Shown: positions 691 to 58,697 of the stretch, one piece after another
Layout of the letters: the number at the start of each line of letters is the position of its first letter
How positions within the stretch are numbered: the first letter of the stretch is position 1
Origin: Pyrinomonadaceae bacterium
GTDB taxonomy: Bacteria > Acidobacteriota > Blastocatellia > Pyrinomonadales > Pyrinomonadaceae
Assembly (NCBI GenBank): GCA_045807805.1
Contig: JBJMGR010000196.1
Location: forward strand, 189-64,188
DNA: 64,000 nucleotides
Direction of reading: 5' to 3'
Made by a program: the position numbers and the translations under genes
The notes under the pieces: generated by a model
Database searches by the model: none
Told to the model about the DNA's origin: nothing
What the model saw: only the letters and a program-made list of their open reading frames with translations

Positions 691-1419
691 ATGAGTGTCT
701 GGGCGAGGTTCAAGCGCTCCCTGCGGGCCATATTCGGCGGCATCATAGAGAAGACCGAAGATCCCGAGCTGATACTCCAGCAGACCATCCGCGACATGCG
801 CGACCGCGTGCCCGAGTTGAACAACTCTGTGGCGCAGGTGATGGCGACCGAGCGACTGCTCGCGAAGAACAAGGATCGGCTCGAAGAACAGGTCGTCGAC
901 CTCGACTCGAAGATCAAGGCCGCCATCAAGATGAATCGCGACGACATCGCGACGGCCTACATCGGTCAGTTGCAGCAGGCGCAGCTAGACCTCTCGAAGA
1001 CCGGGCAGCAACTCGAACACGCCTCGAACGCATCCGACCAGGCGCGCAAGGCCCGCGACAACTACATCCTACAGATGCAGCGCCGCACCGCCGAGGCGAT
1101 GCAGCTCATCAACCAGTCGAAGCAGGCCAAACTGCAAGAACAACTCGCGCAGACGATGTCTTCGTTCCAGTTGGGCGACGACGCCTCGACCTTCAACGAG
1201 ATGCGCGAGAAGATTGACCGCCGCGCCGCGACCGCCGAGGCCAAGCTGCAACTCGGCACCTCCGGCGTTGACACGCAGATGCAGGAGATCGAGCGCGAGG
1301 CGATGGACATGCAGTTGCAGGACAAGCTGGCCGAATACAAGCGCGGCATGGGACTCTTGGGCGGCGGCGAGAAGAGTGCGCCCGCGCTCCCCGCGGGGTC
1401 GGGCGAGTCGAACTCCTGA
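691..1419 (+). CDS. pspA: PspA/IM30 (Vipp1) family membrane-stress protein
   Basis: From the ATG at 691 (GGAGG 10 nt upstream) the N-terminus reads MSVWARFKRSLRAIFGGIIEKTEDPELILQQTIRDMRD, followed by long coiled-coil heptads. This is the typical PspA N-terminal signature. The ORF track offers an upstream GTG at 643. Confidence 0.85.
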   Translation: MSVWARFKRSLRAIFGGIIEKTEDPELILQQTIRDMRDRVPELNNSVAQVMATERLLAKNKDRLEEQVVDLDSKIKAAIKMNRDDIATAYIGQLQQAQLDLSKTGQQLEHASNASDQARKARDNYILQMQRRTAEAMQLINQSKQAKLQEQLAQTMSSFQLGDDASTFNEMREKIDRRAATAEAKLQLGTSGVDTQMQEIEREAMDMQLQDKLAEYKRGMGLLGGGEKSAPALPAGSGESNS

Positions 1420-1480
1420 AGGACTTGGAAGCTTACTGAATAGGCTAGGCGGGCGTCGAAATTTTCCTAAGTGGTAGTTT

Positions 1481-2320
1481 ATGGCGGAGCGAAAGATAAG
1501 TCTCGAATACCTTAAGGAAGCCGTCATGGAGCCCGTCAACTTCTGGGGCATGGCGGGCTTCGCCGTCGCGGCGGCATACACCTGGTCTACGATACCGCTC
1601 GCCGCGGCGCTCGTGGCCGAAGGCGCTTACCTCGCGACCATACCCGCGAGCACGATCTACCGAAGGCTTGTGGACGGACGCAACCGCAAGCGCCTCGCAG
1701 AGCTTCGCGGCAAGCAGCGCGACCGCATGATAGAGGGCTTCGACCCGCGCGAGCGCGAGGCCGTGCTCTATCTGAAGTGGCTCAAGAACAAGATTTTCGA
1801 CAACTACGTCAAGTTCACGGGCGCGAAAGACCTGCCCATGAACATCAAGAGTCTCGACCAGCGTTGGGAGGACTTCGTTGACCTCCTCGACGTGTACCGG
1901 CGGCGCAAGCATCACCTGCGCTCCATTAACCGTCAGGCCGTGCAGAACCAGCTCGCGCAGGCCGAGCGCTCGGTCGAGAATGCGCCCGACGACCGCTCGC
2001 GCCGCATACAGAGCGCCAACGCCGAGATACTCAAGCGCCGCCTCGCGCAGTTCGGCGAGTTGGAACGCTCCGTCAAGCTGGTCGAAGGGCAGTTGCAGTC
2101 AATCGAGAACTTCTTCGGGCTGGTCAACGATCAGGTCGTCACGCTGCCGACGCCCGAACGCGTCTCGTCGCTCGACTTCGAGCAGTTGTCGGACTCGATA
2201 CAGATGACCAAGCAGATGCTCGAAGAGACTTCGGACGTGATGGGCGTCCTCGACAGCCACAACCGCGAGCTTGGCAACTTCGACCTGCTGCCCTCGTCGG
2301 GCACGACCTCGGCCAAGTAG
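1481..2320 (+). CDS. hypothetical membrane-anchored coiled-coil protein, co-directional partner of pspA
   Basis: 279-aa ORF lying 61 nt after pspA. It has an N-terminal hydrophobic stretch (VNFWGMAGFAVAAAYTWSTIPLAAALVAEGAYLATIP), then Arg/Glu/Gln-rich helical sequence. I recognise no family motif. Confidence 0.6.
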   Translation: MAERKISLEYLKEAVMEPVNFWGMAGFAVAAAYTWSTIPLAAALVAEGAYLATIPASTIYRRLVDGRNRKRLAELRGKQRDRMIEGFDPREREAVLYLKWLKNKIFDNYVKFTGAKDLPMNIKSLDQRWEDFVDLLDVYRRRKHHLRSINRQAVQNQLAQAERSVENAPDDRSRRIQSANAEILKRRLAQFGELERSVKLVEGQLQSIENFFGLVNDQVVTLPTPERVSSLDFEQLSDSIQMTKQMLEETSDVMGVLDSHNRELGNFDLLPSSGTTSAK

Positions 2321-2328
2321 GGAAGTCA

Positions 2329-2424
2329 AACAGAACCGCGAGCGGTAGCAAGCGGGTCTCAAGCTCCGACGGGCGAACGCCTGACGAAACTTGAGACCCG
2401 CTCGCTACCGCTCGCGGTTCTGTT
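2329..2424. repeat. long hairpin element, CAGAACCGC..GCGGTAGC arm class (probable bidirectional terminator between convergent genes)
   Basis: aacagaaccgcgagcggtagcaagcgggtctcaag (2329-2363) pairs with cttgagacccgctcgctaccgctcgcggttctgtt (2390-2424). The same arm sequence recurs at 20964 and 33921. Confidence 0.8.
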
Positions 2425-2433
2425 CGTCTTACG

Positions 2434-3360
2434 TCAGAGCCCTTCGAGCATGCCCGCGAGCGACGGCTCGTCTATACGATAAGTCTCATTGCAGAAGTGG
2501 CATGTGAGCGCCGCGCCCTTGTCCTCGCGCAGCATGGACTCCAACTCCGACCTGTCTATTGACGAGATGAGCGACGCCGCGCGCTCGTAAGAGCAGGTGC
2601 ACGCGAATCCGACCTCGCGCTCTTCGAGAATCTCGAACGACACGTCGCCGAGCGCTGTGCGAAGAAGGTCTTCGGCGCGAGCCCCCTCGCGTATGAGCGC
2701 CGTCGTGTGCGGCGTGCGGCCGACCGACTCCTCAATCGAGGCGACCGTCGCGGAGTCCGCGCCCGGCATGACCTGTATCATCAGCCCGCCCGCGGCCTCC
2801 ACGTAAATCTCGCCCGACTCCCTCGCGCGCATGAGCACGCCGAGCATGACGGCCGAGGGAATCTGCTCCGACTTCGCGAGGTAGTATGCGAAGTCCTCGC
2901 CTATCTCGCCCGACGTGATGGGCACCGCGCCGCGGTACGGCTCGCGGTAGAGTCCTATCTCGAAGCCCGACTCGTATGTGACGTAGAACATGCCGCCGCC
3001 GAGCACTGCCCCCACGTCGAACTTGCCCGAAGCGTTCAGCGGCACGTCGGCCTCGGGGTTGCGGACGTAGCCGCGTACCTGTCCGCGCGCGTTCGCCTCG
3101 GCCGTGATGCCGCCGACGGGGCCGTCGCACTCTATCTGAACCGTCAGGCGGTCGAACTCCTTCTGGCCCGCGCCGAGCAGAAGCACGCCCGTCAGCGTAC
3201 GCCCGAGCGCCGCCGAGACCGTCCCTGTTGTCCCGTGGCGGCGCGCCGCCTCCGAGACCGTCTCGGTCGTCACGGCCGCCATGCAGCGTATGAACCCGTC
3301 GGCGGCGGTCGCACGCACGAGCCTGTCGCCGCGCCCGTTCCTCGTCTCTTCCAAAGCCAT
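2434..3360 (-). CDS. hslO: Hsp33 redox-regulated chaperone
   Basis: 308 aa. The C-terminal zinc centre CTCSYERAASLI....LTCHFCNETYRI (CxC...CxxC) and the overall Hsp33 layout are present. Confidence 0.9.
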   Translation of the reverse strand: MALEETRNGRGDRLVRATAADGFIRCMAAVTTETVSEAARRHGTTGTVSAALGRTLTGVLLLGAGQKEFDRLTVQIECDGPVGGITAEANARGQVRGYVRNPEADVPLNASGKFDVGAVLGGGMFYVTYESGFEIGLYREPYRGAVPITSGEIGEDFAYYLAKSEQIPSAVMLGVLMRARESGEIYVEAAGGLMIQVMPGADSATVASIEESVGRTPHTTALIREGARAEDLLRTALGDVSFEILEEREVGFACTCSYERAASLISSIDRSELESMLREDKGAALTCHFCNETYRIDEPSLAGMLEGL

Positions 3361-3603
3361 ATTTACCCTCTTATCCTTCCATCAAAAGCCGAGACTTAGA
3401 TGAATAACAGTCGCCCGCGACTGCCTGAGAGCGTACCTCACTGTCCGCGTCCGGACATGCCGGCGACGACGCCCGCGAACTGACCGCGAGGGCGTGCCTC
3501 CGGGCGTTAAAATCCATGAGTTTTTGGCCTGAAAGTCGAGCCTCAGCCTGTTCAGGTAAAATGTCAAGGTGCGCGCTCTATTGGAGCACCAGTAAAGGAC
3601 TAG

Positions 3604-3617
3604 CACAATATATTGTG
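3604..3617. promoter_or_regulatory. NrdR box (operator of the ribonucleotide reductase repressor NrdR)
   Basis: Perfect 14-bp palindrome cacaatatattgtg. It matches the NrdR-box consensus (acaCwAtATaTwGtgt) and sits immediately upstream of, and abutting, the -35 of the nrdJ promoter. Confidence 0.6.
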
Positions 3618-3625
3618 TTATACTC

Positions 3626-3654
3626 TTGACAAGCAAAACGGGCGGGTGTATTCT
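3626..3654 (+). promoter_or_regulatory. putative sigma70-type promoter of nrdJ
   Basis: TTGACA (3626-3631), 17-bp spacer, TATTCT (3649-3654) with TG at 3647-3648. This would give a roughly 200 nt 5' UTR. Confidence 0.4.
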
Positions 3655-3859
3655 TCGCGCCGTTTGGAACGAGCCGGTCATCGGTGCCGGGGTAGCGTAA
3701 AACTGACCCTACGGCGCAGGGACTTTCTCGCCTCCCGGCCAACCAAGAAGTACCCGAGACACAACCTTGACGGCGCGAATTTAGCGCCGCAATTTTTTCG
3801 ATTGAATCAGAACGTCGCCTCGCGCCCCCCACGAGCGCGGGAAAGGCAAGAGAAGGAAG

Positions 3860-6472
3860 ATGAGCACCGCTATCGAGCCGAACGCACCGCAGGAGAGTCC
3901 CTCCAGTTTCGAGATCACGGGCGCCGCCGCCCCCGCCGCGGAGACCTTAGGACTCAACGCCCGCCGGGTCATTGGAAAGCGCTACAGCCTGAAGGACGCG
4001 CAGGGAGAGCCCATCGAAGAGTGGGCCGACATCGTGCGCCGCGTCGTCGGCCACGTCTCGCAGGCCGAGACGGACATCGTCAAGCGCGACGAGTTCTACC
4101 AGACGATGGAAGGCATCATGCTCCGGCGCGAGTTCGTCCCCAACACGCCCTGCCTCGTTAACGCGGGCAAGCCCTCGGGACAACTCGCGGCGTGCTTCGT
4201 CCTGAACGTGCCTGACTCCATCGCGGGAATTATGAAGACCGCCACCGACGCCGCCATCATCCACCAGACGGGCGGCGGCACGGGCTTCACCTTCGAGAAG
4301 CTTCGGCCCGCGGGCGCGATGGTTCGCTCGACGCACGGCGTGGCCTCGGGCCCCGTGTCGTTCATGAACATCTTCAACACGACGACCGACACAGTGAAGC
4401 AGGGCGGCGTGCGGCGCGGCGCGAACATGGGCATCATGCGCGTTGACCACCCGGACGTGCTCCGCTTCATACACGCGAAGAACGACCAGCACAGCCTCAC
4501 GAACTTCAACATCTCCGTGACCGTGACCGACAAATTCTTCGAGGCCGTTGACAACAAGGAGTGGTACCAGCTCTCCTTCGACGGCGAGGCTTGGGACGAT
4601 GAAGTCTTCGACCCCGTGCTCGACGGCCCGTACGCCGTCTACCGAAGCGCCGGCGGCGAGACCGTGACCTTCCGCGACCGCGCCGCGTACCTCGAAGCCA
4701 AAGAGTCGGGCTTGCTCGAAAAATGCACGCGCGAGGAGCCGCCGCGCGCCGGGATGATATACGCGCCCGACGTTTGGGATCGCATCGTCGCCTCCGCGCA
4801 TCGCTACGCGGAGCCGGGCGTCATCTTCATCGACGAGGTCAATCGCAACAACCACATGATGGACTCGATGGGGCCCATCTACGCGACGAACCCTTGCGCG
4901 GAACAGGCGCTGCACTTCAACAACTCTTGCAACCTCGGCTCGATTGACCTCGCGAAGTTCTACGACCCCGAGACGCGTCTCGACTGGGACAGGCTCGCGG
5001 ACGCGGTTCACTGGTGCGTGCGATTCCTCGACAACGTGATTGACACGTGCGCGTGGCCGCTGCCCGAGATTGACGACGTAGTGAAGCGCACGCGGCCCGT
5101 GGGCCTCGGCATCATGGGCTTCGCGGACTTGTGCATTGATCTCAAGATTAAGTACGGCTCGAACTCTTCGATTGACCTGATGGACGAGGCGATGTCGTTC
5201 GTGCGCCGAGAGGCTTGGACGGAGTCGTGCCGCCTCGGCGCTGAGAAGGGCGTCTTCCCCGAGTACAAGCCGAACAGGAAGGCTTACGACAAGTTTCTGC
5301 GCGAAGAGATAGGCATACCCGAAGAGGTGGAGATAACGCCTCGCAACTACGAGACGACGACCATCGCGCCGACGGGCACGATCTCGCTCGTCGCGGAGAC
5401 TAGCTCGGGCGTCGAGCCCAACTTCTCCTGGGCCTACGTCCGTCAGGACACGCTCGGCAAGCGCACCTACGTCCACACGCTCGCGGCCGAGGCGCTCGGC
5501 ATCACGGTTGACCAGACCGACCAGGATTCGATTGACCGCGCGGCCGAGCACGTCTGCGCGCACGATTCGGAGCTTCCCGACTACTTCATCTCCGCCATGG
5601 ACATCACGGCCGAGCAGCATGTCTACGTGCTCGCAGCCGCGCAGCGCAACGTGGACAACGGCGTGTCGAAGACCTGCAACGGCTCGCGCGACGACACGGT
5701 CGAGAGCGTTGACCGTCTCTACAGACTCGCGCGCGAGTTGGGCTGCAAGGCCGTGAGCTACTATCGCGACGGCAGCCGCGACTCGCAGGTGCTATCGGCC
5801 GTCAAGGGCGCTGAAGTGCCGAGCGAGGTCGCGTGCGATGCGGCGATTGTGGCCGAGGCCGCGACGGCGGAGACGGCGACCGAGGCGACCGCGCAGACAG
5901 CAGCGACAGTCGAGACGTTGCAGTCCGCCGCTCCAACACCCGTAAGCAGAACCGAGTCGGGCGACATGGTTCGCATCGAGCGCCCGCGCGAGCTTTCCGG
6001 CGCGACGTGGCAGATACCCTTCGACGGCCAGAACCTATACGTCACCGTGAACCACGACGGCTTGGACATACTCGAAGTCTTCGCCACGGGGCCGATATCG
6101 GGCGGCGTCGGCCTGCTCGCCTCGAAGATGCTGCGCGGCGGCTTCGACGCGCGCGAGGTCGCACGCTCTCTGAACAAGGTGACGGGCACGCACTCGGTCT
6201 GGTTCAACGAGCGACTGTTGACGAGCCCCGAGCAGGCCGTCGCCGAGTGCGTTATGCTCACGAGTCGGCGCTTGCAGAGCCAGCCCGACTCGGCGCGCGC
6301 TCTCGCGTATCAGCAGCAGGTGCAACCGAAGACACAGGTGAGCCTGCCCGAGAGCGTCGAGCAGAACCGCAACTACTCGCTCATTGCCGAGTGCCCCGAG
6401 TGCAAGGGCCAACTCGAACACGCTTCGGGGTGCGATTTCTGCCGCGACTGCGGCTACTCGAAGTGCAAGTAG
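3860..6472 (+). CDS. nrdJ: class II (adenosylcobalamin-dependent) ribonucleotide reductase
   Basis: 870 aa. Motifs seen: [43 protein letters not shown] and the C-terminal Cys cluster CPECKG...[12 protein letters not shown]. An Ala/Thr/Glu low-complexity linker precedes the C-terminal domain. Confidence 0.9.
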
Positions 6473-6530
6473 ACTCTCCGATGGTTCGCGGCAACGGCGG
6501 CGCATAAGGCCCGCGACTGAGCGGGTGGGC

Positions 6531-6587
6531 AAATGAGTCGGGCGGAGGGGTTGAGCGCGCAAACCCCCTCCGCCCGACTCATTTTTA
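6531..6587 (+). terminator. rho-independent terminator of nrdJ
   Basis: 19-bp GC-rich stem aatgagtcgggcggagggg / cccctccgcccgactcatt followed by a T-run (6584-6587). It is not of the heptamer type. Confidence 0.7.
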
Positions 6588-6704
6588 AGTCCCCTGCAAA
6601 CGTCCCACACTTCGTACAAAGTCCACGCGTGATGCGACGCGCGTTTAATTCACGCCGCATCGGAAGGCGCGTATAACTTCGCGCCCTTGGACTCTTTTTT
6701 AGAC

Positions 6705-6732
6705 TTGCACTTTAGAGCATTGATGATATTAT
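6705..6732 (+). promoter_or_regulatory. putative strong sigma70-type promoter of the A-B-ATPase operon
   Basis: TTGCAC (6705-6710), 16-bp spacer, extended -10 TGaTATTAT (6724-6732). It lies in the only AT-rich patch of this intergenic region. Confidence 0.45.
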
Positions 6733-6738
6733 CTGCCG

Positions 6739-6997
6739 CCTCCGGTGGTAGTAGCAGTCCCGCGGCTAAGAGCCCTCGCGCCGCCGTATCGGGTTAGTTG
6801 CCTTACGAATTGGGTACAACCGAATACGCATCTGCCGGTTTCGCGCCGCCGCTCCGTTCACGCGTGCGCGCGGTGTCGAACGTCTCTGTCCGGCTCTGCC
6901 TCCGCAACCCCTACGGCGCGGGCCACGTCCGCATCCGTCGAGGTGGAAGGGTGGCCGGATTAAGAATTTCATCCTCGTATACTCTCGGAGGTCAGGA
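6739..6997 (+). other. long GC-rich non-coding leader / candidate structured RNA upstream of gene A
   Basis: About 260 nt lie between the predicted transcription start and the SD-TTG of gene A. No convincing ORF is present in any frame. The motif CTGCC(G)CCTCCG is repeated at 6733-6744 and 6896-6905. Several short GC stems are present, for example ggccac 6921-6926 / gtggcc 6951-6956. The class is not identifiable by eye. Confidence 0.3.
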
Positions 6998-7831
6998 TTG
7001 TCTATCTTCACCCGCCCTTACCGCATGGCCGCGCTCCGCCTCAACATATGGTGGCGCGGGAGTTCAATCGGATGTGATCCGCGCACCAGAAGGGCCGTCA
7101 AAGGCGTGACACTTATACACGTCACGACGGCCGACACGGATACAACCTTTCCGCAGATGTTACTGCGGCGGCCGCACGAGCTTTCCGTCACTGGCGCGCA
7201 CAGCTCGAACTGGACGCGCAAATCGGAGGAGGAACTCAATCTAAAAGCGAACGTATATTTTTACGCGGGGGTCGCGTTCGCGGTGCCCTATGGTGGCACC
7301 GCGCTGGTGTTCGGCCCTGAGTGTGCGGCAAAGCATACGGGCTCGGCCACACTATTTAACACGGGGGATGTCGCACACGGCAAGCTCAAACTCGACCTGC
7401 GGAAGAAGGGTGACACGCTCAGAGCCTTCGTACATAGGAACCTGATACCGCTGCGCCGCTGGCGTGAAGAATTCAGAAAACACCTCGCCGCGCATTTCTC
7501 CGACCCTGCCCATTATTTCGACGGCGAACCGTGCGTGCCGGGGCCTAACGAGCTGTTCAGCATGAACAAGGACAGACCTTCCGCGTGGCGTTATGAGGTC
7601 AGATTCCGCGAGGGGCAGAACCTCTTCGACGTGCTCGAATGGAGCGGCCGACCAGGTCTCAAAATAAGGCTTCTAAAGGAGGCCAAGGAGCTGGCGGCGC
7701 TCTCGGACGCCGACGTTCTCCCGCGCTTGAATCAATTCATAGGGCGTGCAATCATTCCCCAGGGGTCTGCACACGGGCAGGAGATAATCGAGGAAACTCA
7801 GCGACGAGCAAGGGGAAGGATGGGTTTATGA
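6998..7831 (+). CDS. hypothetical protein A (first gene of the three-gene operon)
   Basis: ORF with a TTG start at 6998, preceded by GGAGG (6987-6991) with a 6-nt spacer. Alternative in-frame starts are ATG 7025, GTG 7106 and ATG 7157. The stop overlaps the start of gene B (ATGA at 7828-7831). No family is recognised. See the finding on a possible H-Y-E pattern. Confidence 0.6.
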   Translation: MSIFTRPYRMAALRLNIWWRGSSIGCDPRTRRAVKGVTLIHVTTADTDTTFPQMLLRRPHELSVTGAHSSNWTRKSEEELNLKANVYFYAGVAFAVPYGGTALVFGPECAAKHTGSATLFNTGDVAHGKLKLDLRKKGDTLRAFVHRNLIPLRRWREEFRKHLAAHFSDPAHYFDGEPCVPGPNELFSMNKDRPSAWRYEVRFREGQNLFDVLEWSGRPGLKIRLLKEAKELAALSDADVLPRLNQFIGRAIIPQGSAHGQEIIEETQRRARGRMGL

Positions 7832-9153
7832 AGTTTGACTACGATAAGCTGACCATCGTTGGGTTCAACGGGTCGGTCGAGGGCGAATGCGGGTACGCCG
7901 TGGCCGTCGCGAGGTATGAACCCACGGGTAAACACCTGAGGCTCGCGTTCCCGGCCGCCGAGATGGAGCTGTTGAAGGATTTGCGCCGACCGGGAGAGGA
8001 GATCCCACGCATCCCCCCCGAAGCTTACGAGCCCGAGGGGCGTCCTTCGCTCGACGACGAGTCCGTCATCAGGGGATACGAAGAGAGGGGCAGGCTCACA
8101 CTCTTCCGCGAGGGCCTATGGTTCAAGGCCGACCACAACGCGATGGTGCTCTACGTCACGCAGCGGATGCTCGACACCGCCAGGGAGGAGTTGCGCCCCG
8201 CGCCCCTCGAAGATGTATTCCGCAACGTGCTCAAAGAGGAGCCGCGTTGGGAACTGTTGTCCGAGTCGCCCGAGATAGTCTGGGTGACCTGCGCCTCCGT
8301 GGACGCAGCCTTCCTGCTGATAGACCATTGGTGCAAGGGGCTTCGGCACGAGTGCATCGGCCGCCTGATTAGATTCATCGAGAGCGGGGAGCGGGACAGG
8401 GAGGCGCTCGGCGAGGCGGAGGCCGCGGTCGAGATGGCGCTCGCGGCGGCGCGGAGCTACGTGCTGCGCGAAGACCTGTTCCTCCTCTACAGCATCGTGC
8501 TGACCTACACGTCCCCGCTGATGGTCAAAAACATATTCGAGATGGGGATACTGCCCGAGTTCAAGAAGACCGAGTGGACGCAAGCGGTGTTCGACGAACA
8601 GCGGCATCTACTCCTGAAGGCGTTCCACGAGAGGGCGCAGGCAAAAATCGCCGCGCGGGCCGGGGCAGCTTCGGCCGGGGCGGGCGGGCGCGCTCTGCTC
8701 GGGGAGATACTCGCGCACACAGACGAGCGCTCTCCCGAAGAGCTGATGAGCAAAGTCGCCGAGGCCGTCGCGGAAGTCGGCCGCGCGCAGGAAGGGCACG
8801 CGCAGTTCGTCAAGGCGAAAGAGTGTGCGGAGTCCTTCATGCGCCGGTTCAAACCCGACTTGGCCGTGTACAAAGAGATAGTCGAAGAGCTGAAGCGGAA
8901 CATCGTGCTCATCAAGGTCGAGACAGAGCCGAGGCTCAAGGTCTTCGCCTCAGACCCAATCTTCTACCTCCTGCCGCGCACCACACGCCTCAGGGAGACG
9001 AAGGAGGTCAACTTCTACGACTTCCTCGAAGTCGTTCGCGACCACATGGACGATTACAGGAGAGCGAACGAAGGAAGATGTACCCCACTCGCGCGCTACG
9101 CGCTGGAAGAGGCGAAAGACGTTCCCGAACGCTTCCAGGTCGCAAGACGCTAA
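7828..9153 (+). CDS. hypothetical protein B (second gene of the three-gene operon)
   Basis: 441 aa from the ATG at 7828, with an AAGGGGAAGGA purine tract upstream. The start overlaps the gene A stop. The sequence (MKFDYDKLTIVGFNGSVEGECGYAVAVARYEP...) is largely helical with an Ala/Gly linker (AARAGAASAGAGG). I recognise no motif. The longer track ORF starting at 7639 overlaps gene A out of frame and is rejected. Confidence 0.7.
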   Translation: MKFDYDKLTIVGFNGSVEGECGYAVAVARYEPTGKHLRLAFPAAEMELLKDLRRPGEEIPRIPPEAYEPEGRPSLDDESVIRGYEERGRLTLFREGLWFKADHNAMVLYVTQRMLDTAREELRPAPLEDVFRNVLKEEPRWELLSESPEIVWVTCASVDAAFLLIDHWCKGLRHECIGRLIRFIESGERDREALGEAEAAVEMALAAARSYVLREDLFLLYSIVLTYTSPLMVKNIFEMGILPEFKKTEWTQAVFDEQRHLLLKAFHERAQAKIAARAGAASAGAGGRALLGEILAHTDERSPEELMSKVAEAVAEVGRAQEGHAQFVKAKECAESFMRRFKPDLAVYKEIVEELKRNIVLIKVETEPRLKVFASDPIFYLLPRTTRLRETKEVNFYDFLEVVRDHMDDYRRANEGRCTPLARYALEEAKDVPERFQVARR

Positions 9154-9159
9154 GCCCAC

Positions 9160-11694
9160 ATGCAGAAACCGACCGACCCCTTGTCGCGCGCTCCAAAAGC
9201 GTTGGAGGACTATTGCGGTAGTTACTCAGAGGCCGTGTCGAAGGTGATGGACTTCGGCCGCGCCCTCTGGAAACTCGCCTTCCTCAAGCCCCCCGGCGGC
9301 TCCGCGATCCAGACCGAAAGAGAGCAGCACCAGAAGGAGAAAATCCTGAGCGCGAAGTATGGCTGGGAGGTGCATCACGCCCCCGTCCATCACCACGTCG
9401 TGGATGTCCACCAACTGACGGACAAGAAGCGGTTCTTCTCCGATGTCTTCCTGCTCAACCTCTTCACCGACCACCTTCAGGAGAAGGGGCTCTACGTCCT
9501 CACGACGGCCAACAACTACGCGTGGCTGAACGGCGCGGTCTTCGAGCCCGTCACGCTCGTCCGCCACTTCCTCGGCGGCCTTAAGGCTGAGACCGACCTG
9601 CGCTACTTCGTCAGGCGAGACATAAGGATGAAGTACGGCTACGAGATGTCGTCGCTCACGGCCCACTTCTTCCACTTGCTGGCCGACTCCGTCAACAAGA
9701 GGCTGGAAGCGGGAGACCTCTTACTACGCGCTGATGGGATGAGTGAGTCCGGCCGCAACTGTAGTTACAAGGACGGCTTCAGCAGCGTCCTTTGGAATGC
9801 CTTGAAGGAAGACGGGCAGTGGAATGGCGCGGAGGAGAAGGATGATAACGACGACGATGACACCTACGAGCCCGGCATCGTCAAGATGTTCGTCGAGTGT
9901 TGTAGAGATGCGAGGTACTTGAGGGCGGCGGACTGGAGGCCGGGCTACATCCGCATCGAGACGCAGTTCTTCGACGCCGAATACCTCGTCTCGCGGCTCT
10001 TCGGACTGCCGACAAAAATCTCCGGGTTCGATGACCTTTTCGGCGGCGGCGGCCTCATACTCTCGGAGGACTCGCAGGCGGGCGCGGCAGCAGCGGCAGC
10101 AGCAGCAGCGGACGCAGACGCCGTGGTGGAGACAGACGAGGCGGACGCGGACGGCGACGCGTCATCGCCCGCCCCGCCTAGGCGCGGGCGTCTGAACGGC
10201 CGGACGATACTCATCAAGGGCCGCTTCGGTACCGGCAAGTCGCTGCTCTCCATGCAACTCGCCGTCGAGGTCGCGAGGAAGGGCGGGCTGGCTTGGATAA
10301 TGCCGCAGGAGCAGACGGTCGAGGAGTGCCTGTACGCGCTCGAATCCATGGCGGTGCTGCCGCGCGACGGCTCCGTCATCGTCGCCAAGACCGCGTCCGA
10401 GGCGCTGAAGGTGCTGCGCCGCAGGGACGGCGACCGCGGCGCTCTGATAATCCTCAACGTCCTCTCGAAGAAGTCTTACAAAAACTTCCTCGACGCCTTC
10501 GCCGACAAAGCCACGGACACGAGGCTCTACCCGTTGCGCGTGGTGAGCGTAGACCCGATTAACAGCATCTCGCGGCCGAGGCAGGAGGCGGCCGAGTTGC
10601 GTGCTCTGGTTTTCGAGAAGCTCAAGGAGGTGCGCGAGGCCGGCACCAACATCATACTCGTGGCTGAGGAGGAGAGCGACCCGAAGGGCCAGGCCCGCTC
10701 CAAGCAGAGCGCGGCCTTCGAGCAGAACATCGCGGACACGGTCATTCACCTCTCCATCAACAAGCAGCAGAACAACAACTACGCACAGCGCTATTTCGAG
10801 GTGACCAAGTCGAGGTACCAGCGCGAGCAGCGCGGCGAGCACGCCTTCTCCATCGTGCCGGGCAGGGGGTTCCGCATATTCCCATCGACGGCCGCCGTCC
10901 GCGCACGGATATACACGCGCGGCGCGAGCCCGCCCGCCTACAACATCGATATCGAGCCGCAGTCGCTCACGAACCGGCTCGGCGATGGCTCGGTGATGCG
11001 CGGCGACGTGATCGTCTTTCAGGGCCCAAGCGGGACGTTCAAGACGCCGCTCGGCGTCCCCTTCGTGCTCGGCTCCGACGCCCGCGACGCGAAGGAGTCC
11101 ACCCCCGGCAGACGCCCGAAGCGGTCGCTCTTCATTGCCACGCGCGACAACAAGCCGACCGTCGAGCGGCTGTTTAAGGAGTTCGAGCTAAAGTATCTCA
11201 AGGGCGGGCCGAACACGCGCATGACAAAGAAGAGCATTGAGGAGGTCGTCATCAGCCCGATGCGGCACGGCTACGTCCAGCCCGGCTATATCCTCCAGTC
11301 GCTGATCGACGAGTTCGACAAGGCCGAGCTTGAAGACTACTCCATAGACCGCGTGATGATAGACAACATTTCGCACTGGGAGATGAGCTGCCCCTTCATC
11401 AGGGACGACGAGGCATTCGGCAACACCCTCCTCGACTTTCTCAGGCGGCGAAGGGTCACGAGCCTTATCATCTGCGGCGAGCCGTCGCGCGACGCGCGCT
11501 CAGTGTTGCAGCAGTCGATCGTTGACAACGCCGACTGCGTGCTCAGGTTCAGCCGTTCAGGAAACAGAGGGCGGCAGCGCATCTATATGCGGGTCGTGAA
11601 GACTCACAACATCGAGGCGCGCGAAGACTACTTCGAGTTGATACGCACCGGGGATGAGATTGAGTTCGAGCCTTACTCACAGAGGGGAGGGTGA
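9160..11694 (+). CDS. unknown N-terminal domain fused to a tandem KaiC/RadA/RecA-like P-loop ATPase (first module intact, second degenerate)
   Basis: 844 aa, starting 6 nt after the gene B stop. Module 1: GLPTKISGFDDLFGGGGL ... GRTILIKGRFGTGKSLLSMQLAVEVARKGG (Walker A), LRVVSVDPINSI (Walker B-like), NIILVAEEE, YFEVTKSRYQ..HAFSIVPGRGFRIFP. Module 2: MRGDVIVFQGPSGTFKTPLG (Walker A with Phe replacing the conserved Gly), DRVMIDNISHWE, SLIICGEP, RIYMRVVKTHN..YFELIRTGDEIEF. Residues 1-280 carry no recognisable motif. Confidence 0.8.
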   Translation: MQKPTDPLSRAPKALEDYCGSYSEAVSKVMDFGRALWKLAFLKPPGGSAIQTEREQHQKEKILSAKYGWEVHHAPVHHHVVDVHQLTDKKRFFSDVFLLNLFTDHLQEKGLYVLTTANNYAWLNGAVFEPVTLVRHFLGGLKAETDLRYFVRRDIRMKYGYEMSSLTAHFFHLLADSVNKRLEAGDLLLRADGMSESGRNCSYKDGFSSVLWNALKEDGQWNGAEEKDDNDDDDTYEPGIVKMFVECCRDARYLRAADWRPGYIRIETQFFDAEYLVSRLFGLPTKISGFDDLFGGGGLILSEDSQAGAAAAAAAAADADAVVETDEADADGDASSPAPPRRGRLNGRTILIKGRFGTGKSLLSMQLAVEVARKGGLAWIMPQEQTVEECLYALESMAVLPRDGSVIVAKTASEALKVLRRRDGDRGALIILNVLSKKSYKNFLDAFADKATDTRLYPLRVVSVDPINSISRPRQEAAELRALVFEKLKEVREAGTNIILVAEEESDPKGQARSKQSAAFEQNIADTVIHLSINKQQNNNYAQRYFEVTKSRYQREQRGEHAFSIVPGRGFRIFPSTAAVRARIYTRGASPPAYNIDIEPQSLTNRLGDGSVMRGDVIVFQGPSGTFKTPLGVPFVLGSDARDAKESTPGRRPKRSLFIATRDNKPTVERLFKEFELKYLKGGPNTRMTKKSIEEVVISPMRHGYVQPGYILQSLIDEFDKAELEDYSIDRVMIDNISHWEMSCPFIRDDEAFGNTLLDFLRRRRVTSLIICGEPSRDARSVLQQSIVDNADCVLRFSRSGNRGRQRIYMRVVKTHNIEAREDYFELIRTGDEIEFEPYSQRGG

Positions 11695-11718
11695 ACTTTG
11701 AGCCCGCCCCCCCCGTCA

Positions 11719-13077
11719 CTACTTAACGTCTGGGATGTAGAGGGAGTATGCGCGGTTAAGGAGCCCCACGCCGCCGCCGTGGCCCGCCAGCAGTTCCAGC
11801 ATTTTCCGCCGGATGGTATCGTCCGTATCACCGAATATCGAGGCGACACTCACGTTCGCGCCGGGCGTCATGAGATACGCGAACACGCGGGCCATGCCGC
11901 AGTTCGCAATGAAGTCCGGGATTATCCCGAACTCCTTGTCGGCCTCAATCTGCGTCGTAAGCGAGTGCTCGGCCATCTCGCTGATGTCCTTGAGTTCGCT
12001 GATGTCCTTTATCTCGCTTACGTCCCTGCCGTCGTTGCCATCTCCCACGACGCCGTCGGCTTCGTCCTTTGCCTCGAACGAGAAGGGCACGTTTGAACCG
12101 CAGGCGATGGTGTTCACGCCCGCGCCCCGCAGCTTCCGTATGATTGACGAGTTGACGGTGTAGGACGCGGCGGCGGGCACGAAGATGTCTGCCTCCACTT
12201 TCCAGAACTCTTCCGACTCCTCGACAGACCCCGTCTCGCAGTCGCGCGGCAAGCAACTCCTCTCGCGGCGCTGTAGGAGGTCGTTCACGTTCAGCCCGTC
12301 ATCATCGACCGCCCAAGATCGGCGCTGCCCCACGCCGTTACCGCTCCCGAGCGCGTTCGCGAGGCTTAGTACGCCGACGACGCGCGCGCCCTCGCCCGCG
12401 AGATAGAAGGCGGCCGAGCCTCCGACCTCGCCGAAGCCCTCTATCAGAACGCGCTTGCCCTCAAGTCGCTCCCCCCTGAATTCGTAGTAGTGGCGCAGAG
12501 ACCTCGCAAGCCCGTAGCCGGTTATCATGTTGGCGACCATGAACGACCCCGGCGGGTCGGGAAGGTACATCTCCACGCCGTCGTTGAGCTGGCCGAATAT
12601 CCTCCCATACTCTCCCTCCGTGAGTCTGAAGTGGCCGCGTACAATGCCCTCCTGCGGGTGTGAGAGGTCGAGCAGGTCGTGTGTCAACCTCTTGACTTCG
12701 CCCTCTCTGACGTTCAGGTCGCCGCCCGTGCCATAGCAGTTGCGCAGGAATAGCCTGATGGCCCTGTACCAGCGGCTCAGCACGCCTCTCATTTTCTCTT
12801 CGTCGCGCGGATCGAAGTTGACTTTGATGACAGACTTCGCGCCTCCGATGGCGGGGCCGGAGATGCGAAACTTCACCTCCATCGTCTTCGCGAGGAAGAC
12901 TGCTTCCTCCCTCGTCGCGTTCTCGCGCATGCGCGTACCGCCGCCGGCCGCGCCGCCGCGTAGCGAGTTGATGACCAGCCATCCGACCGAGTCCGTCTCG
13001 TCGTCGTTCCATTCAAGCGTCAGCAGCGGCCGAACCTTGAAGAACTCTTTGTACTTTCGATATCCATCGTCAGTCAT
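11719..13077 (-). CDS. Glu/Leu/Phe/Val dehydrogenase family protein
   Basis: 452 aa. Motifs seen: GGAAGGGTRM, FLAKTMEVKFRISGPAIGGAKSVI (catalytic-Lys region) and a Rossmann GFGEVGGSAA. It is the last gene of an operon with tyrS, with a 2-nt gap. Confidence 0.8.
   Translation of the reverse strand: MTDDGYRKYKEFFKVRPLLTLEWNDDETDSVGWLVINSLRGGAAGGGTRMRENATREEAVFLAKTMEVKFRISGPAIGGAKSVIKVNFDPRDEEKMRGVLSRWYRAIRLFLRNCYGTGGDLNVREGEVKRLTHDLLDLSHPQEGIVRGHFRLTEGEYGRIFGQLNDGVEMYLPDPPGSFMVANMITGYGLARSLRHYYEFRGERLEGKRVLIEGFGEVGGSAAFYLAGEGARVVGVLSLANALGSGNGVGQRRSWAVDDDGLNVNDLLQRRERSCLPRDCETGSVEESEEFWKVEADIFVPAAASYTVNSSIIRKLRGAGVNTIACGSNVPFSFEAKDEADGVVGDGNDGRDVSEIKDISELKDISEMAEHSLTTQIEADKEFGIIPDFIANCGMARVFAYLMTPGANVSVASIFGDTDDTIRRKMLELLAGHGGGVGLLNRAYSLYIPDVK
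11979..12032. repeat. in-frame 18-bp tandem repeat (about 3 copies) inside the dehydrogenase gene
   Basis: cgctgatgtccttgagtt / cgctgatgtcctttatct / cgcttacgtccctgccgt. On the coding strand this encodes (R)DVSEIKDISELKDISEM. Confidence 0.8.
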
Positions 13078-13079
13078 CT

Positions 13080-14420
13080 CTAGTCTCCGTCGACCCTGAA
13101 GAGGTGGTACTGCTTTTCCCCCCTGCTCAGGAGCAGGAACCGACCGCCGCCTATCGCGTCTTCGGGCCGCACGCGCATGGAAACGTCGGCCACCCTCTTG
13201 TAGTTGAGGTAGATGCCGCCGCTCTGAATCAGGCGCTTCGCCTGCGCCTTGCTCGGCACCTGCTTGTCGCCCTCGGTCATCGTGGCGAGCCCGGACTCGA
13301 ACACGAGATCGACGACGGACATCCCCTCGCCGCCGAGGCGCTCGCTGTCCAAGGGGGTGGAGGGCACGTAGCCGAACGCCTCGCCGATGTCGGCGTCGTC
13401 GGCCCCCGCGGCCTCGCCGCCGAAGATGGCGCGCGTCGCACGCTCGGCGTTCGCCAGTGCCTCGTCGCCGTGGAGCATCCTCGTCACCTCGCGCGCGAGC
13501 CTCCGCTGTGCCTCACGCTTCTGCGGCTCGGAAGCCACCGCGCTCTCGTACTCCGCTATCTCCTCTTCGGAGAGCCAAGTGAAGTATTTGAGATGGGCGA
13601 TGACCGAGGCGTCGTCGCTGTTCAGGAAGTATTGATAGAAGCTGTAGGGCGTCGTGTAGTGCTTCGGGAGCGAAGGGTCGGCGTTGAGCCACACGCTGCC
13701 CGATTCGGTCTTACCGAACTTGACGCCCTTCGGGTCCATCAACAGCGGCAGGACGAGCCCGTAGGCTCGCGCGCCCTGCTCGCCGCGCACGCGCCTTATG
13801 AGGTCAACACCCGCGAGTATGTTGCCCCATTGGTCACTGCCGCCCATCTGTAGCGTACAGCCGTGCCTTTCGTTGAGTACGAGGAAGTCGTAAGCCTGAA
13901 GCAGCATGTAGCTGAACTCGGTGTAAGTTATACCTTGCTCCATCCTGCGCTTGACCGACTCCCTTGAGAGCATGGAGTTGATGGAGAAGTTCTTCCCTAC
14001 GTCGCGCAGGAAGTCTATGAGTGGGATGCTCGTCAGCCAGTCGGCGTTGTTGATTATGAGCGCGGGATTGTCCTTGGCGTCAAAGTCGAGGAAGTGGCTC
14101 AACTGCTCTTTGATCTTCTGTAGATTGTGTTCGACCTGCTCCTTCGTGAGCAGTTGCCGCTCGTTCACCTTGCCGCTGGGGTCGCCTATGAGCCCCGTGC
14201 CGCCGCCGACGATGGCGATGGGCCTGTGGCCGTGGCGCTGTAGCCGCGCGAGCGACATTATGGGGAGCAGCGAACCGACGTGCAGGCTCGGCGCCGAAGG
14301 GTCGAATCCGATGTATGCGGTGACCGACTCCTTCGCCAGAGCTGTTTGCAGCCCTTCAGTGGCGTCGTAAATCATGCCGCGCCACATAAAGTCATCGAAT
14401 ACGTTCGTCGAATTACTCAT
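13080..14420 (-). CDS. tyrS: tyrosyl-tRNA synthetase
   Basis: 446 aa. Class I HIGH-type motif (PSAPSLHVGSL), KMSKS-type motif (KFGKTESG), and a C-terminal S4-like RNA-binding domain (KRLIQSGGIYLN). Confidence 0.9.
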   Translation of the reverse strand: MSNSTNVFDDFMWRGMIYDATEGLQTALAKESVTAYIGFDPSAPSLHVGSLLPIMSLARLQRHGHRPIAIVGGGTGLIGDPSGKVNERQLLTKEQVEHNLQKIKEQLSHFLDFDAKDNPALIINNADWLTSIPLIDFLRDVGKNFSINSMLSRESVKRRMEQGITYTEFSYMLLQAYDFLVLNERHGCTLQMGGSDQWGNILAGVDLIRRVRGEQGARAYGLVLPLLMDPKGVKFGKTESGSVWLNADPSLPKHYTTPYSFYQYFLNSDDASVIAHLKYFTWLSEEEIAEYESAVASEPQKREAQRRLAREVTRMLHGDEALANAERATRAIFGGEAAGADDADIGEAFGYVPSTPLDSERLGGEGMSVVDLVFESGLATMTEGDKQVPSKAQAKRLIQSGGIYLNYKRVADVSMRVRPEDAIGGGRFLLLSRGEKQYHLFRVDGD

Positions 14421-26256: not shown

Positions 26257-26267
26257 GAGAAGGAATA

Positions 26268-26344
26268 GTTACAAGTTCAAAGTTGCAGGTTCAGAGTTAG
26301 AAGGCAGGCTCTTAACTTTGAACCTGCAACTTTGAACTTGTAAC
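26268..26344. repeat. CAAAGTT-class heptamer hairpin element (copy 1)
   Basis: gttacaagttcaaagttgcaggttcagagtt - loop agaaggcaggctct - taactttgaacctgcaactttgaacttgtaac. Confidence 0.85.
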
Positions 26345-26421
26345 TTCCGCGGCGGTAGTTCTGAAACACCTCGCGGCGTTGCGGCGTAAAAGGTGGGACG
26401 AGAGGCCGGAAGGGGAGTTTG

Positions 26422-35117: not shown

Positions 35118-35160
35118 GACTTTGAATGTAACACGGAGCGGGGCAGCCGATGCAATAGCT

Positions 35161-35266
35161 CAAAGTTCAAAGTTGCAAGTTCAAAGTTAAAGACACTCCG
35201 CCTCTTAACTTTGAACTTGCAACTTGGAGCTTTGAGCTTGGAACTTGGAGCTTGGAACTTGGAGCT
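35161..35266. repeat. CAAAGTT-class heptamer hairpin element (copy 3, inverted loop, right arm expanded)
   Basis: caaagttcaaagttgcaagttcaaagtt - loop aaagacactccgcctct - taactttgaacttgcaactt. This is followed by extra unpaired heptamers ggagctt tgagctt ggaactt ggagctt ggaactt ggagctt. Confidence 0.85.
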
Positions 35267-39729: not shown

Positions 39730-39861
39730 AAGGATGAAGGCGGAATCGAAGGCTTACCTTCTCAAGTTCAAAGTTACAAGTTACAAGTTCAAAGTTAGAA
39801 GGCGCGTGCCCTCTAACTTTGAACTTGTAACTTTGAACTTCTTACTTCCGCCTTCATCCTT
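39730..39861. repeat. CAAAGTT-class heptamer hairpin (copy 4) nested inside GGATGAAGGCGGAA outer arms
   Basis: Outer arm aaggatgaaggcggaa (39730-39745) pairs with ttccgccttcatcctt (39846-39861). The inner element spans 39763-39841 with loop agaaggcgcgtgccctc. It fills the recG / bacilliredoxin gap. Confidence 0.85.
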
Positions 39862-49180: not shown

Positions 49181-49324
49181 AAGTGATGAGTGATAAGTCG
49201 TTAAGTTACAAGTTCCGGGTTGCAGGTTCAAAGTTGGAAGGCGGCGGGTGTGCTCTTAACTTTGAACTTGCAACCCGGAACTTGGAACTCCGTGTCCCTT
49301 CTCATCACCCATCACTTATCACTT
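49181..49324. repeat. CAAAGTT-class heptamer hairpin (copy 5) nested inside GATAAGT-class outer arms
   Basis: Outer arm aagtgatgagtgataagt (49181-49198) pairs with ctcatcacccatcacttatcactt (49301-49324). The inner element spans 49200-49288 with loop ggaaggcggcgggtgtgctct. Confidence 0.85.
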
Positions 49325-53946: not shown

Positions 53947-54031
53947 GGCAGAAGGCAGAAGGCAGAAAGCAGAAGGCAGTCAAGGCGCACTCGCTTTTGA
54001 CTGCCTTCTGCCTTCTGCCTTCTCTGCCTTC
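53947..54031. repeat. heptamer-periodic hairpin element, GCAGAAG word class
   Basis: ggcagaaggcagaaggcagaaagcagaaggcag (53947-53979) pairs with ctgccttctgccttctgccttctctgccttc (54001-54031). It abuts the dacB stop codon. Confidence 0.85.
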
Positions 54032-55409: not shown

Positions 55410-55616
55410 CTCTTAAACTCCAATCCCCTTGTTAAGCCTCACCGCCCGCGACGAAGAGGGCGCGCCAATGATAGCACTGAACGCTTTCGCGGGCGGGCGC
55501 CGATTTTCGGGGGAAGAGTCGCGGGGGCGAACGCTTGGATGCAAACCGGCATCGTACGCGATGTATGCACATCTGAAGCGCCGTAAACGCGCAATGCAAC
55601 CACCGTTCCGAAATGA

Positions 55617-55695
55617 GTTCAAAGTTCAAAGTTTCAAGTTCAAAGTTAGAAGGCGCGTGCCCTTAACTTTGAACCTGCAACTTTGAACTTGAAAC
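55617..55695. repeat. CAAAGTT-class heptamer hairpin element (copy 6)
   Basis: gttcaaagttcaaagtttcaagttcaaagtt - loop agaaggcgcgtgccct (the same 16 nt open the 17-nt loop of copy 4) - taactttgaacctgcaactttgaacttgaaac. Confidence 0.85.
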
Positions 55696-56453
55696 TCTCT
55701 TTTGACATTCAAGAAAGCGCGCCCATAGAATTTCGTTCAAGTTCGGAGTCGGTTAGTCCAGCCTCTTTCTTGAAATTAAGTATCGAACAAGTGCGGCGAG
55801 ATAGAGAGCCCGTCACGCTGGAGAAGATTCGCGCCGCACACATTGAGCGGCGGCGTGAGATACGCGCGCGCCTCGCGGAGTTCGAGGCGGTGCGGCGCAC
55901 GGCCACGGACGAGAGGCTCTGGGAGGAGCTGGTCTTCTGCATCTTCACCGCGGGCGCGTCGGCGCGCATGGGGCTCGGCTCAATCGAGGCCGTGCGACAC
56001 CTGCTCGCGTGTGGAACGCATGAAGAGCTTGCCGCCGCTCTTCAAAGCAAGCACCGTTACCCGAACTCGCGCTCGGGCTACATCGTCGTGACGCGCTCTT
56101 ACCTCGAATCGGACTGCCGCATGCGTCTGCGCGAGCGGCTCGAAAATTTTGAAGACCCGATAGAGCGGCGCGACTGGCTCGCGCGCACGCGCGAGATAAA
56201 GGGCCTGGGCTACAAAGAGTCGAGCCACTTTCTTCGCAACGTCGGTTACAGAGGCTATGCGATACTCGACAAGCACATTCTCCGCTGCCTCTCCGAAGTC
56301 GGGGTGCTAGACTCTCCTCAGCCGCCCTCGACGCGCGCGCGCTATATCTCGACGGAGGAGCGTCTGCGACGCTTCGCGGACGACCTCGGCGTAGACTTCG
56401 ACGAACTCGACCTCGTACTCTGGTCTATGAAGACCGGAGAGATTTTGAAATGA
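55683..56453 (+). CDS. ogg: 8-oxoguanine DNA glycosylase/AP lyase, Ogg2 (archaeal/clostridial) type
   Basis: LWEELVFCIFTAGASA, RYPNSRSGYIV, HhH-GPD region IKGLGYKESSHFLRNVGYRGYAILDKHIL. The track start at 55683 lies in the hairpin arm. In-frame TTG 55770 or GVG-type GTG 55791 are more likely starts. Confidence 0.75.
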   Translation: MNLKLSFDIQESAPIEFRSSSESVSPASFLKLSIEQVRRDREPVTLEKIRAAHIERRREIRARLAEFEAVRRTATDERLWEELVFCIFTAGASARMGLGSIEAVRHLLACGTHEELAAALQSKHRYPNSRSGYIVVTRSYLESDCRMRLRERLENFEDPIERRDWLARTREIKGLGYKESSHFLRNVGYRGYAILDKHILRCLSEVGVLDSPQPPSTRARYISTEERLRRFADDLGVDFDELDLVLWSMKTGEILK

Positions 56454-58613: not shown

Positions 58614-58687
58614 TAGTGATAAGCGATAAGTGATAAGAGGGGACGGCGCGTCTTCTTTCTCATCACTTATCACTTATCACTTATCAC
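58612..58687. repeat. heptamer-periodic hairpin element, GATAAGT word class
   Basis: gatagtgataagcgataagtgataagag pairs with ctcatcacttatcacttatcacttatcac. It starts inside the stop codon of the PIN-like gene. Confidence 0.85.
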
Positions 58688-58697
58688 TTCTGTTATC

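Follow-up and report, generated by a model that had tools for sequence, protein, structure and literature searches.

The 64,000-nucleotide (nt) stretch analysed here, referred to as the window, belongs to contig JBJMGR010000196.1 of a Pyrinomonadaceae bacterium (Acidobacteriota, GenBank assembly GCA_045807805.1) and carries on its forward strand a compact operon of three genes, named A, B and C, the last of which encodes a KaiC-like ATPase (Table 1). The arrangement of the operon is as described in a first-pass annotation of this DNA: three open reading frames (ORFs) lie on the same strand, A and B overlap through an ATGA at 7828-7831 and B and C are separated by a gap of 6 nt at 9154-9159. 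A and B are translationally coupled in the window. The limits of the unit also agree with that annotation. It is placed between the terminator of nrdJ and a convergent gene for an ELFV-type dehydrogenase (gdh), with a stop-to-stop gap of 24 nt (11695-11718). The terminator hairpin is formed by two arms of 27 nt each (6531-6557 and 6558-6584) which are 89% complementary and followed by a T-run, and it is kept in the related locus L001 (loci of other genomes are denoted by L numbers throughout).

The sequence which had been called a near-consensus promoter is present at its position ahead of A, but its -35 hexamer has only 3/6 matches to the consensus and a consensus scan came out empty. Better evidence than the consensus match itself is obtained from a three-way alignment of the window with L001 and L002, whose proteins are 42-73% identical to those of the window. 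The pattern CTTGCAC...TGnTATnAT is invariant in all three, and the promoter is credible because of this invariance in two orthologous loci. The leader, estimated earlier at about 260 nt, has the length given in Table 1 and contains sequence blocks that are invariant in the same three loci, for example GTnGCCTTACnAAnTG, CAACCGAA and GGTGGAAGnG..CCGGATT. A search of Rfam for a structured RNA in the leader gave no match, and only a weak consensus fold (-12.9 kcal/mol) is predicted. In the public annotation (P0076), A is 241 amino acids (aa) long and begins 36 codons late, leaving out 6998-7105; the longer product is supported by the GGAGG sequence ahead of the TTG at 6998 and by conservation of residues 1-36 in the orthologues. 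Conservation extends over the full length of A from residue 1 in L001-L003.

Table 1. Coordinates of the A-B-C operon, its parts and its upstream border in the window.
Feature	Coordinates	Strand	Remark
nrdJ terminator hairpin and T-run	6531..6587	+	upstream boundary of the A-B-C unit
Promoter, TTGCAC, 16 nt, TG-extended TATTAT	6705..6732	+	read from sequence
Leader	6733..6997	+	265 nt; conserved sequence blocks; GGAGG (6987-6991) 6 nt ahead of the TTG start
Gene A	6998..7831	+	277 aa, TTG start; putative effector enzyme of an uncharacterised stand-alone family
Gene B, whole	7828..9153	+	441 aa; candidate adaptor
B, N-terminal part, residues ~1-269	7828..8634	+	portion accompanying A, also where C is absent
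B, C-terminal module, residues 298-428	8719..9111	+	~130 residues; candidate docking module for C
Gene C	9160..11694	+	844 aa; KaiC-like ATPase
C, N-terminal domain, residues 1-283	9160..10008	+	family-specific; shared by almost all of the 72 homologues
C, first KaiC/RecA-like domain, residues ~284-576	10009..10887	+	PF06745 over 284-576; predicted active ATPase
C, second KaiC-like domain, residues ~600-844	10957..11694	+	degenerate; collinear with KaiC CII

The KaiC/RecA motifs which had been recognised in C from the sequence alone are confirmed by Pfam, where the family PF06745 is matched over two stretches with an E value of 5e-27 (95.1 bits against a cut-off of 26.6). C is collinear with the CI and CII domains of KaiC, and its best match in a search of PDB sequences is 8zn5 (E 2e-12). 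The first KaiC/RecA-like domain contains a Walker A motif, GRFGTGKS, in agreement with the pattern GxxxxGK[ST], together with a catalytic Glu (E384) and a Walker B Asp (D465). Residues G354, G357 and K360 of the Walker A motif, E384-Q385, D465 of the Walker B motif and, further downstream, K550, R552, Q554, R555, G559 and H561 are invariant across 28 homologues. The domain is predicted from its sequence to be an active ATPase. An Ala/Asp-rich low-complexity insert, QAGAAAAAAAAADADAVVETDEADADGDASSPAPP (10072-10179, C residues ~305-340), is located between a GGGG motif and the first-domain Walker A motif; it is lineage-specific and lacking in most homologues.

The second domain of C lacks the canonical catalytic motifs. 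Its P-loop reads GPSGTFKT, and strand 2 is not followed by a Glu, the position of the catalytic Glu having no acidic residue. In the window, L001 and L002, KTHNIEA replaces the family motif KTRGMxH of this domain. An extra C-terminal tail of ~440 aa is present in 57/72 homologues of C, and some of these tails match PF13416 (solute-binding protein, SBP-like); the clade of the window is without the tail. B, which is also ~440 aa long, was considered as a split-off equivalent of the tail and rejected, since a hidden Markov model built from the 57 tails matches no B. We propose that the system of this clade is a reduced form, in which the SBP-like tail and the Arg-finger motif of the second domain would have been lost and A carries the substitution D121N described below. 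The N-terminal domain of C has no match among PDB sequences. Its AlphaFold2 model (predicted local distance difference test (pLDDT) 85, predicted template modelling score 0.85) is helical with two helix-strand units, residues 78-124 and 200-266, which may be read as winged-helix-like. A Foldseek search of this model against PDB and BFVD gave no match at E <= 0.1, the resemblances found being weak and of winged-helix type.

B appears to be composed of two parts with different associations. A relative of A is present in 38 metagenome loci, and in each of those that extend far enough downstream B or its N-terminal half is located directly 3' of A. The C-terminal module of B, on the other side, ends the protein just upstream of C homologues in five otherwise different architectures. 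It was matched in a 197-aa protein of L004/L010 (E 3e-15), a TPR protein of L013 (E 1e-21), an nSTAND1 nucleoside triphosphatase (NTPase) of L012 (E 4e-6), an nSTAND1-pentapeptide protein of L006 (E 7e-3) and the TPR-like proteins of L064 and L065 (E ~1e-6), and in L017 it forms a fusion with C itself, at the N-terminal end (E 6e-12). In the plasmid-like locus L007/L018 of Planctomycetota, the proteins in the positions of A and B (271 and 441 aa) have no detectable similarity to the A and B of the window.

Neither A nor B has a match in Pfam, NCBIfam, PADLOC or among PDB sequences. An exhaustive HMMER search places A in a family of 192 clusters, almost all of them stand-alone proteins of 240-290 aa, and a Pfam match at a meaningful level was obtained for 0/114 members. 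The best-conserved polar positions are E77 (96%), Y87 (98%), D121 (98%), R156 (90%), Y173 (97%) and E200 (99%). Asp121, which forms part of a P-F-D-[TS]-G-G motif, is present in 110/112 members and the A of the window is the sole one with Asn (codon AAC, 7358-7360). Either the substitution inactivates or attenuates the protein or it stems from a consensus error of the metagenome-assembled genome. The AlphaFold2 model of A is poor (pLDDT 31) because the alignment contained two sequences only. A resemblance, and only a resemblance, exists between the P-F-D-[TS]-G-G motif and the DTG of aspartic proteases. Assignment of A as an H-Y-E ADP-ribosyltransferase (LIHVT...YFYAGRA...YEVRF) was considered and found unsupported, as H41 is present in 71% of members only and neither PDB nor Pfam gave backing for it. 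In L059 (6926-7725) and L069 (4999-5798), which represent the same genome, two ORFs take the place of A, one covering profile positions 1-126 and the other 145-269, next to an intact B and C; the split may reflect a pseudogenised effector or an assembly error.

The family of C is rare and patchy: searches of 5.8 billion clusters and of 185,579 species genomes gave 72 proteins and 17 loci, respectively, and its hosts are Acidobacteriota, Polyangiaceae, Planctomycetota and Herpetosiphonaceae. Its members are always encoded by the last gene of co-directional operons of 2-4 genes. The description of A-B-C as a self-contained cassette holds, and so does the synteny of the three homologues in other genomes that it implies: the order A-B-C with a long-form C recurs in unrelated genomic contexts (L009, L011/L036, L023, L068 and L059/L069). 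An A-like domain is also present in the Polyangiaceae locus L019. The third gene, next after A-B, is a homologue of C in L036 and L059, while in L028, L029, L039, L044, L047 and L061 it encodes a ParA/MinD-like ATPase, usually fused to TPR. These ParA-like ATPases, which take the place of C, match the PADLOC candidate PDC-M28B with E values of 1e-26 to 1e-28. In L068, a separate three-gene operon (949-3986, encoding 300, 218 and 490 aa) that ends in a ParA-like ATPase is situated ~1 kb upstream of A-B-C (5004-10618), and its first two proteins were not detected by the profiles of A and B.

In sister systems the slot of A is filled by enzymes of other families, namely a patatin (L004/L010), a SIR2_2 protein (L006, where an nSTAND1-pentapeptide gene follows), a calcineurin-like phosphoesterase (Metallophos, L012 and L021) and a PNP_UDP_1 protein (L069). 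The earlier statement that the operon has no effector motif was therefore too strong, as A occupies the slot of known effector enzymes. With interchangeable partners upstream (patatin, SIR2, Metallophos, PNP_UDP_1, nSTAND1, TPR and A), the homologues of C show one of the features by which an NTPase-centred modular conflict system is operationally defined, a core NTPase with exchangeable effector or sensor partners across loci. A mobile or defence context is seen at some of the loci. Gasdermin neighbours occur at two of them, L064 (941-1699) and L065 (9458-13371), where a bacterial gasdermin, confirmed by PADLOC, and a Peptidase_C25 gene stand beside short-form C operons of two metagenomes; L065 also carries a gene for an RVT_1-Trypsin fusion and a transposase. 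Plasmid or relaxase contexts occur at two more, the plasmid-like contig L007 with TrwC, TrfA, ParA and IS66, and L067 with TrwC. The operons of L009 and L010 have a G+C fraction at third codon positions (GC3) of 0.44-0.49 against 0.56-0.72 in their flanks. Most C loci are chromosomal, and housekeeping genes surround the operon in the window and in its orthologous loci.

The surroundings of the operon are conserved in three related contigs. The order nrdJ-A-B-C-gdh-tyrS is found in L001, A-B-C-gdh-tyrS with the 3' end of nrdJ upstream in L002, and A-B-C-gdh-tyrS in L003. Identity to the window in L001, L002 and L003 is 79%, 73% and 57% for tyrS, 73%, 70% and 48% for gdh, 71%, 56% and 46% for C, 67%, 52% and 34% for A, and 67%, 42% and 29% for B; nrdJ, which was compared for L001 only, is 92% identical. 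Between the window and L001, A, B and C have synonymous divergences (dS) of 0.58, 0.50 and 0.53, compared with 0.40 for nrdJ and 0.62 for gdh, and the ratio of nonsynonymous to synonymous divergence (dN/dS) is 0.38, 0.45 and 0.35 for A, B and C, compared with 0.12 for nrdJ and 0.27 for gdh. A, B and C are under purifying selection, and A-B-C evolves faster than the housekeeping genes.

Composition does not set the operon apart as had been thought. The block had been described as compositionally foreign, but its G+C content is 61.5% against 64.8% for the window, in which 1-kb windows have a standard deviation of 2.9%, and the adjacent gdh (61.8%) and tyrS (62.0%) are alike. The GC3 values of B (0.82) and C (0.85) are well inside the range of the other genes of the window, 0.68 to 0.93, and A alone, with 0.69, is lowish. 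The excess of AGA/AGG codons is real: they make up 47/144 Arg codons in A-B-C and 122/1390 in the other genes of the window (odds ratio 5.0, p = 8e-14). However, the contrast to the neighbours is true only for nrdJ and the alpha-2-macroglobulin gene, where the fraction is ~0.07. It is 0.32-0.34 in gdh and tyrS (11719-14420), and the two genes together (22/66) differ from the rest (p = 7e-8) and not from A-B-C (p = 1.0). Since gdh and tyrS share the excess, the codon-odd segment spans ~6.6-14.4 kb, with two housekeeping genes included, and not 6.6-11.7 kb. The AGA/AGG-rich pattern of A-B-C, gdh and tyrS is also seen in L001 and L002.

The proposal of the first-pass annotation that the operon was acquired horizontally does not hold for this genome, being contradicted by the gene order kept in three relatives, by dS values like those of the flanks and by a codon signature common to gdh and tyrS. 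Judged from these sequence comparisons, the operon is an old, vertically inherited resident of a fixed chromosomal site, co-inherited with its flanks, and not a recent insert. The long retention of a module of this type at a fixed chromosomal site in one acidobacterial clade bears on the domestication of defence genes.

Taken with the wider family, A-B-C may be one subtype of a rare and apparently undescribed modular system of defence type, centred on a KaiC-like ATPase, with A as effector, B as adaptor and C as ATPase hub; we consider the case for this reading to be evenly balanced. The earlier idea of an uncharacterised module organised by an ATPase, possibly for defence, is strengthened by the comparisons and becomes much more specific. 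The most likely role would be in conflict or defence, with an effector under the control of an ATP-dependent switch, an assignment that in our judgement could fall either way. The defence role, offered as a hypothesis by the first-pass annotation, gains indirect support from the wider family, that is, from the patatin, SIR2, metallophosphoesterase, PNP_UDP_1 and nSTAND partners, the gasdermin neighbours and the plasmid-like contig, but it stays at the level of a proposal.

A possible mechanism can be outlined. C would assemble as a KaiC-like hexamer and act as a slow ATP-driven switch, the first ring hydrolysing ATP and the second having a structural or regulatory part. Docking on C would be the task of the C-terminal module of B, probably and most simply by way of the N-terminal domain of C; in the fusion of L017 this domain comes directly after the module. 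The N-terminal part of B would hold A, the putative output enzyme with conserved E77, Y87, D121, R156, Y173 and E200, and a trigger would lead to its release or activation. The result may be growth arrest or death of the infected cell, as in defence of the abortive-infection type.

A broader proposal, which we put forward tentatively and would not yet bet on, is that prokaryotes have a new class of immune system with C-type KaiC-like double-ring ATPases as its hub. The portable module of ~130 residues would plug in nSTAND, TPR, patatin, SIR2, PNP or A, a slow ATPase/autokinase cycle would set the firing threshold, and A would be an unrecognised effector fold that is also used in ParA-like (PDC-M28B-type) systems. 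STAND, HerA, MoxR, ABC/OLD and SMC proteins form the short list of NTPase cores that organise bacterial immune modules, and if the defence reading of A-B-C is correct an ATPase of the KaiC/RecA clade would be added to it. Three families without a Pfam model would be defined, namely A, the N-terminal domain of C, and B including the docking module, together with an interaction map in which B contacts A through its N-terminal part and C through its C-terminal part. KaiC is the textbook slow ATPase timer, and the setting of firing thresholds could well be studied in a defence system that is based on it.

Comparison with known systems supports the view that no named system fits. A and B are without a match in the databases named above, PADLOC-DB v2 returned 0 matches for A and B and 0 for the homologues of L009, and searches of the full-text literature gave no relevant paper and no description of a KaiC-based defence system. 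Like KaiC (PF06745; PDB 8zn5 and 1tf7), C has two tandem RecA-like domains collinear with CI and CII, and the Walker A, Walker B, catalytic Glu and K-x-R-x-x-x-x-x-x-H region are common to KaiC and the first domain of C. Unlike KaiC, C has an extra N-terminal domain of 283 aa, a deviant P-loop in the second domain and no catalytic Glu there. C is not a bona fide circadian KaiC, as its scores against the NCBIfam equivalogs NF006799 (60 bits against 408) and TIGR02655 (21.5 against 546) are far too low. The reported lack of a KaiA or KaiB partner in the operon agrees with the database results for A and B, the rest of the window not having been scanned for kaiB. C is also not a STAND NTPase (PF25199, 21.4 bits against 34; PF20720, 13.9 against 27.2).

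In 2017, Makarova, Galperin and Koonin reportedly proposed that archaeal KaiC-like ATPases, for example ArlH, are signal-transduction hubs. This hub proposal is cited in PMC6393860. The archaeal hubs likewise combine a KaiC-like ATPase with many different partner genes. In contrast to them, the C systems are bacterial, have a double domain with a unique N-terminal domain and have partners which share a specific docking module and include patatin, SIR2 and nSTAND proteins; the ArlH score of C in NCBIfam is 35.8 bits, far under the cut-off of 215. Defence systems that pair a ring ATPase with an effector, SIR2-HerA and DUF4297-HerA, are said to have been described by Gao et al. in 2020. Their logic is similar, with an oligomeric ATPase of the additional-strand, conserved-Glu (ASCE) type beside a swappable effector that includes SIR2, but C belongs to the KaiC/RecA and not to the HerA/FtsK clade, the adaptor is separate and PADLOC gives no match.

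A related layout is found in the NTP-dependent ternary conflict systems of multicellular bacteria, with MoxR-vWA, STAND and GTPase cores, described by Kaur, Burroughs, Iyer and Aravind in 2020 (PMC7159879). The two have in common three components, an NTPase core, variable effector or sensor partners (TPR, pentapeptide, nSTAND) and hosts among the Myxococcota, Chloroflexota, Acidobacteriota and Planctomycetota. A-B-C differs from them in having no vWA or MoxR component, and neither 'KaiC' nor 'RecA' occurs in the main text of that paper. PDC-M28 is related through the ParA-like ATPases which elsewhere stand next to A and a short B and match PDC-M28B, but the operon of the window is without a ParA-like gene and A, B and C match no PDC-M28 model. 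Membership of C in mad8 of the MADS system was rejected, as the match (E 0.003, 15 bits), the best one of C in PADLOC, covers a P-loop stretch only, 27-85 of 314; the MADS paper gives no domain identity for mad8.

A number of observations weigh against a defence role. A, B and C match no PADLOC model, and the operon is situated among housekeeping genes in an order that is stable down to 57% tyrS identity, which is atypical of defence islands. Only a minority of 131 flanking proteins match PADLOC models, many of them generic kinases, in a comparison made without a control set. No relatives of C or A were found in IMG/VR viral contigs, and none of C in 72,556 PLSDB plasmids. It is the operon position of A, and nothing in its own sequence or model, that suggests an effector, the AlphaFold2 model being without a usable fold. 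Genes for extracytoplasmic-function sigma factors (Sigma70_r2) directly upstream of C in L020 and L022, and the short B of L032 fused to a LuxR-type (GerE/LuxR) helix-turn-helix (HTH), fit gene regulation equally well. These last two findings also count in favour of the main rival explanation, a non-defence signalling or regulatory module with C as signal hub, in the manner proposed for the archaeal KaiC-like ATPases, B as input or adaptor and A as output enzyme, which would control a stress or developmental response. We regard this explanation as unlikely. It can also draw on the stable vertical inheritance by nrdJ, gdh and tyrS, the conserved promoter and leader, the SBP-like (PF13416) ligand-binding tail on most C homologues, the winged-helix-like units read in the model of the N-terminal domain and a weak IclR-type HTH match upstream in L066. 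However, patatin, SIR2, PNP_UDP_1 and nSTAND partners, gasdermin neighbours, mobile contexts and low-GC3 islands typify conflict systems, and the distribution of the family is extremely patchy.

The mobile contexts raise a further possibility, that A-B-C is an addiction module of the toxin-antitoxin type carried by mobile elements, with A as toxin and B-C as its ATP-dependent controller, here fixed in the chromosome and partly decaying. The plasmid-like contig L007, the relaxase-bearing L067, insertion-sequence and transposase neighbours, the apparent split of A in L059/L069, the unique D121N in the A of the window and the fact that this clade has lost both the SBP tail and the motif of the second domain could all be accommodated by such a module. 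It is nevertheless improbable in view of the result for PLSDB plasmids, the purifying selection on all three genes in this clade and the chromosomal position of most loci. More improbable still, to the point that we give it very little credence, is a role of C as a RadA/Rad55-type ATPase in DNA repair or recombination, assisted by two accessory proteins and linked through nrdJ to dNTP supply. The RecA-superfamily fold of C, its NCBI name 'RAD55 family ATPase', the adjacency to nrdJ and the possible winged-helix units of the N-terminal domain are what it explains. Against this, the operon is set off from nrdJ by a strong terminator and has a promoter of its own, the other A-B-C loci are without nrdJ adjacency, and the partner genes elsewhere are of phospholipase, NADase and STAND types. 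The best matches of C are to KaiC and not to RadA; an assignment as RadA/Sms or Rad55 was rejected, with no match to the RadA zinc finger or the Lon-like domain in Pfam or NCBIfam and a helicase-type match of 20.4 bits against 156. Of the explanations considered, we retain the conflict or defence module with an effector gated by an ATP-dependent switch as the preferred one.

Several repeats were observed elsewhere in the window. Hairpins made of tandem heptamers occupy intergenic positions at 26267-26345, 35157-35238, 39764-39847, 49204-49289 and 55615-55697, and also at 53957-54023 and 58615-58688. Their arms are of the AGTTCAA/AGTTACA type, with AGAAGGC and AGTGATA types also present, and they form a genome-specific repeat family with no member in the first 25 kb of the window. 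The absence of these hairpins from the A-B-C block had been noted among its distinguishing features. They are indeed lacking there, but the absence carries no weight because every one of the hairpins is located between 26 and 58 kb and because the block has one intergenic gap. An inverted repeat of a different kind, with arms of 53 nt that are 87% complementary and 2 nt apart, is located at 2323-2430 between two convergent ORFs.

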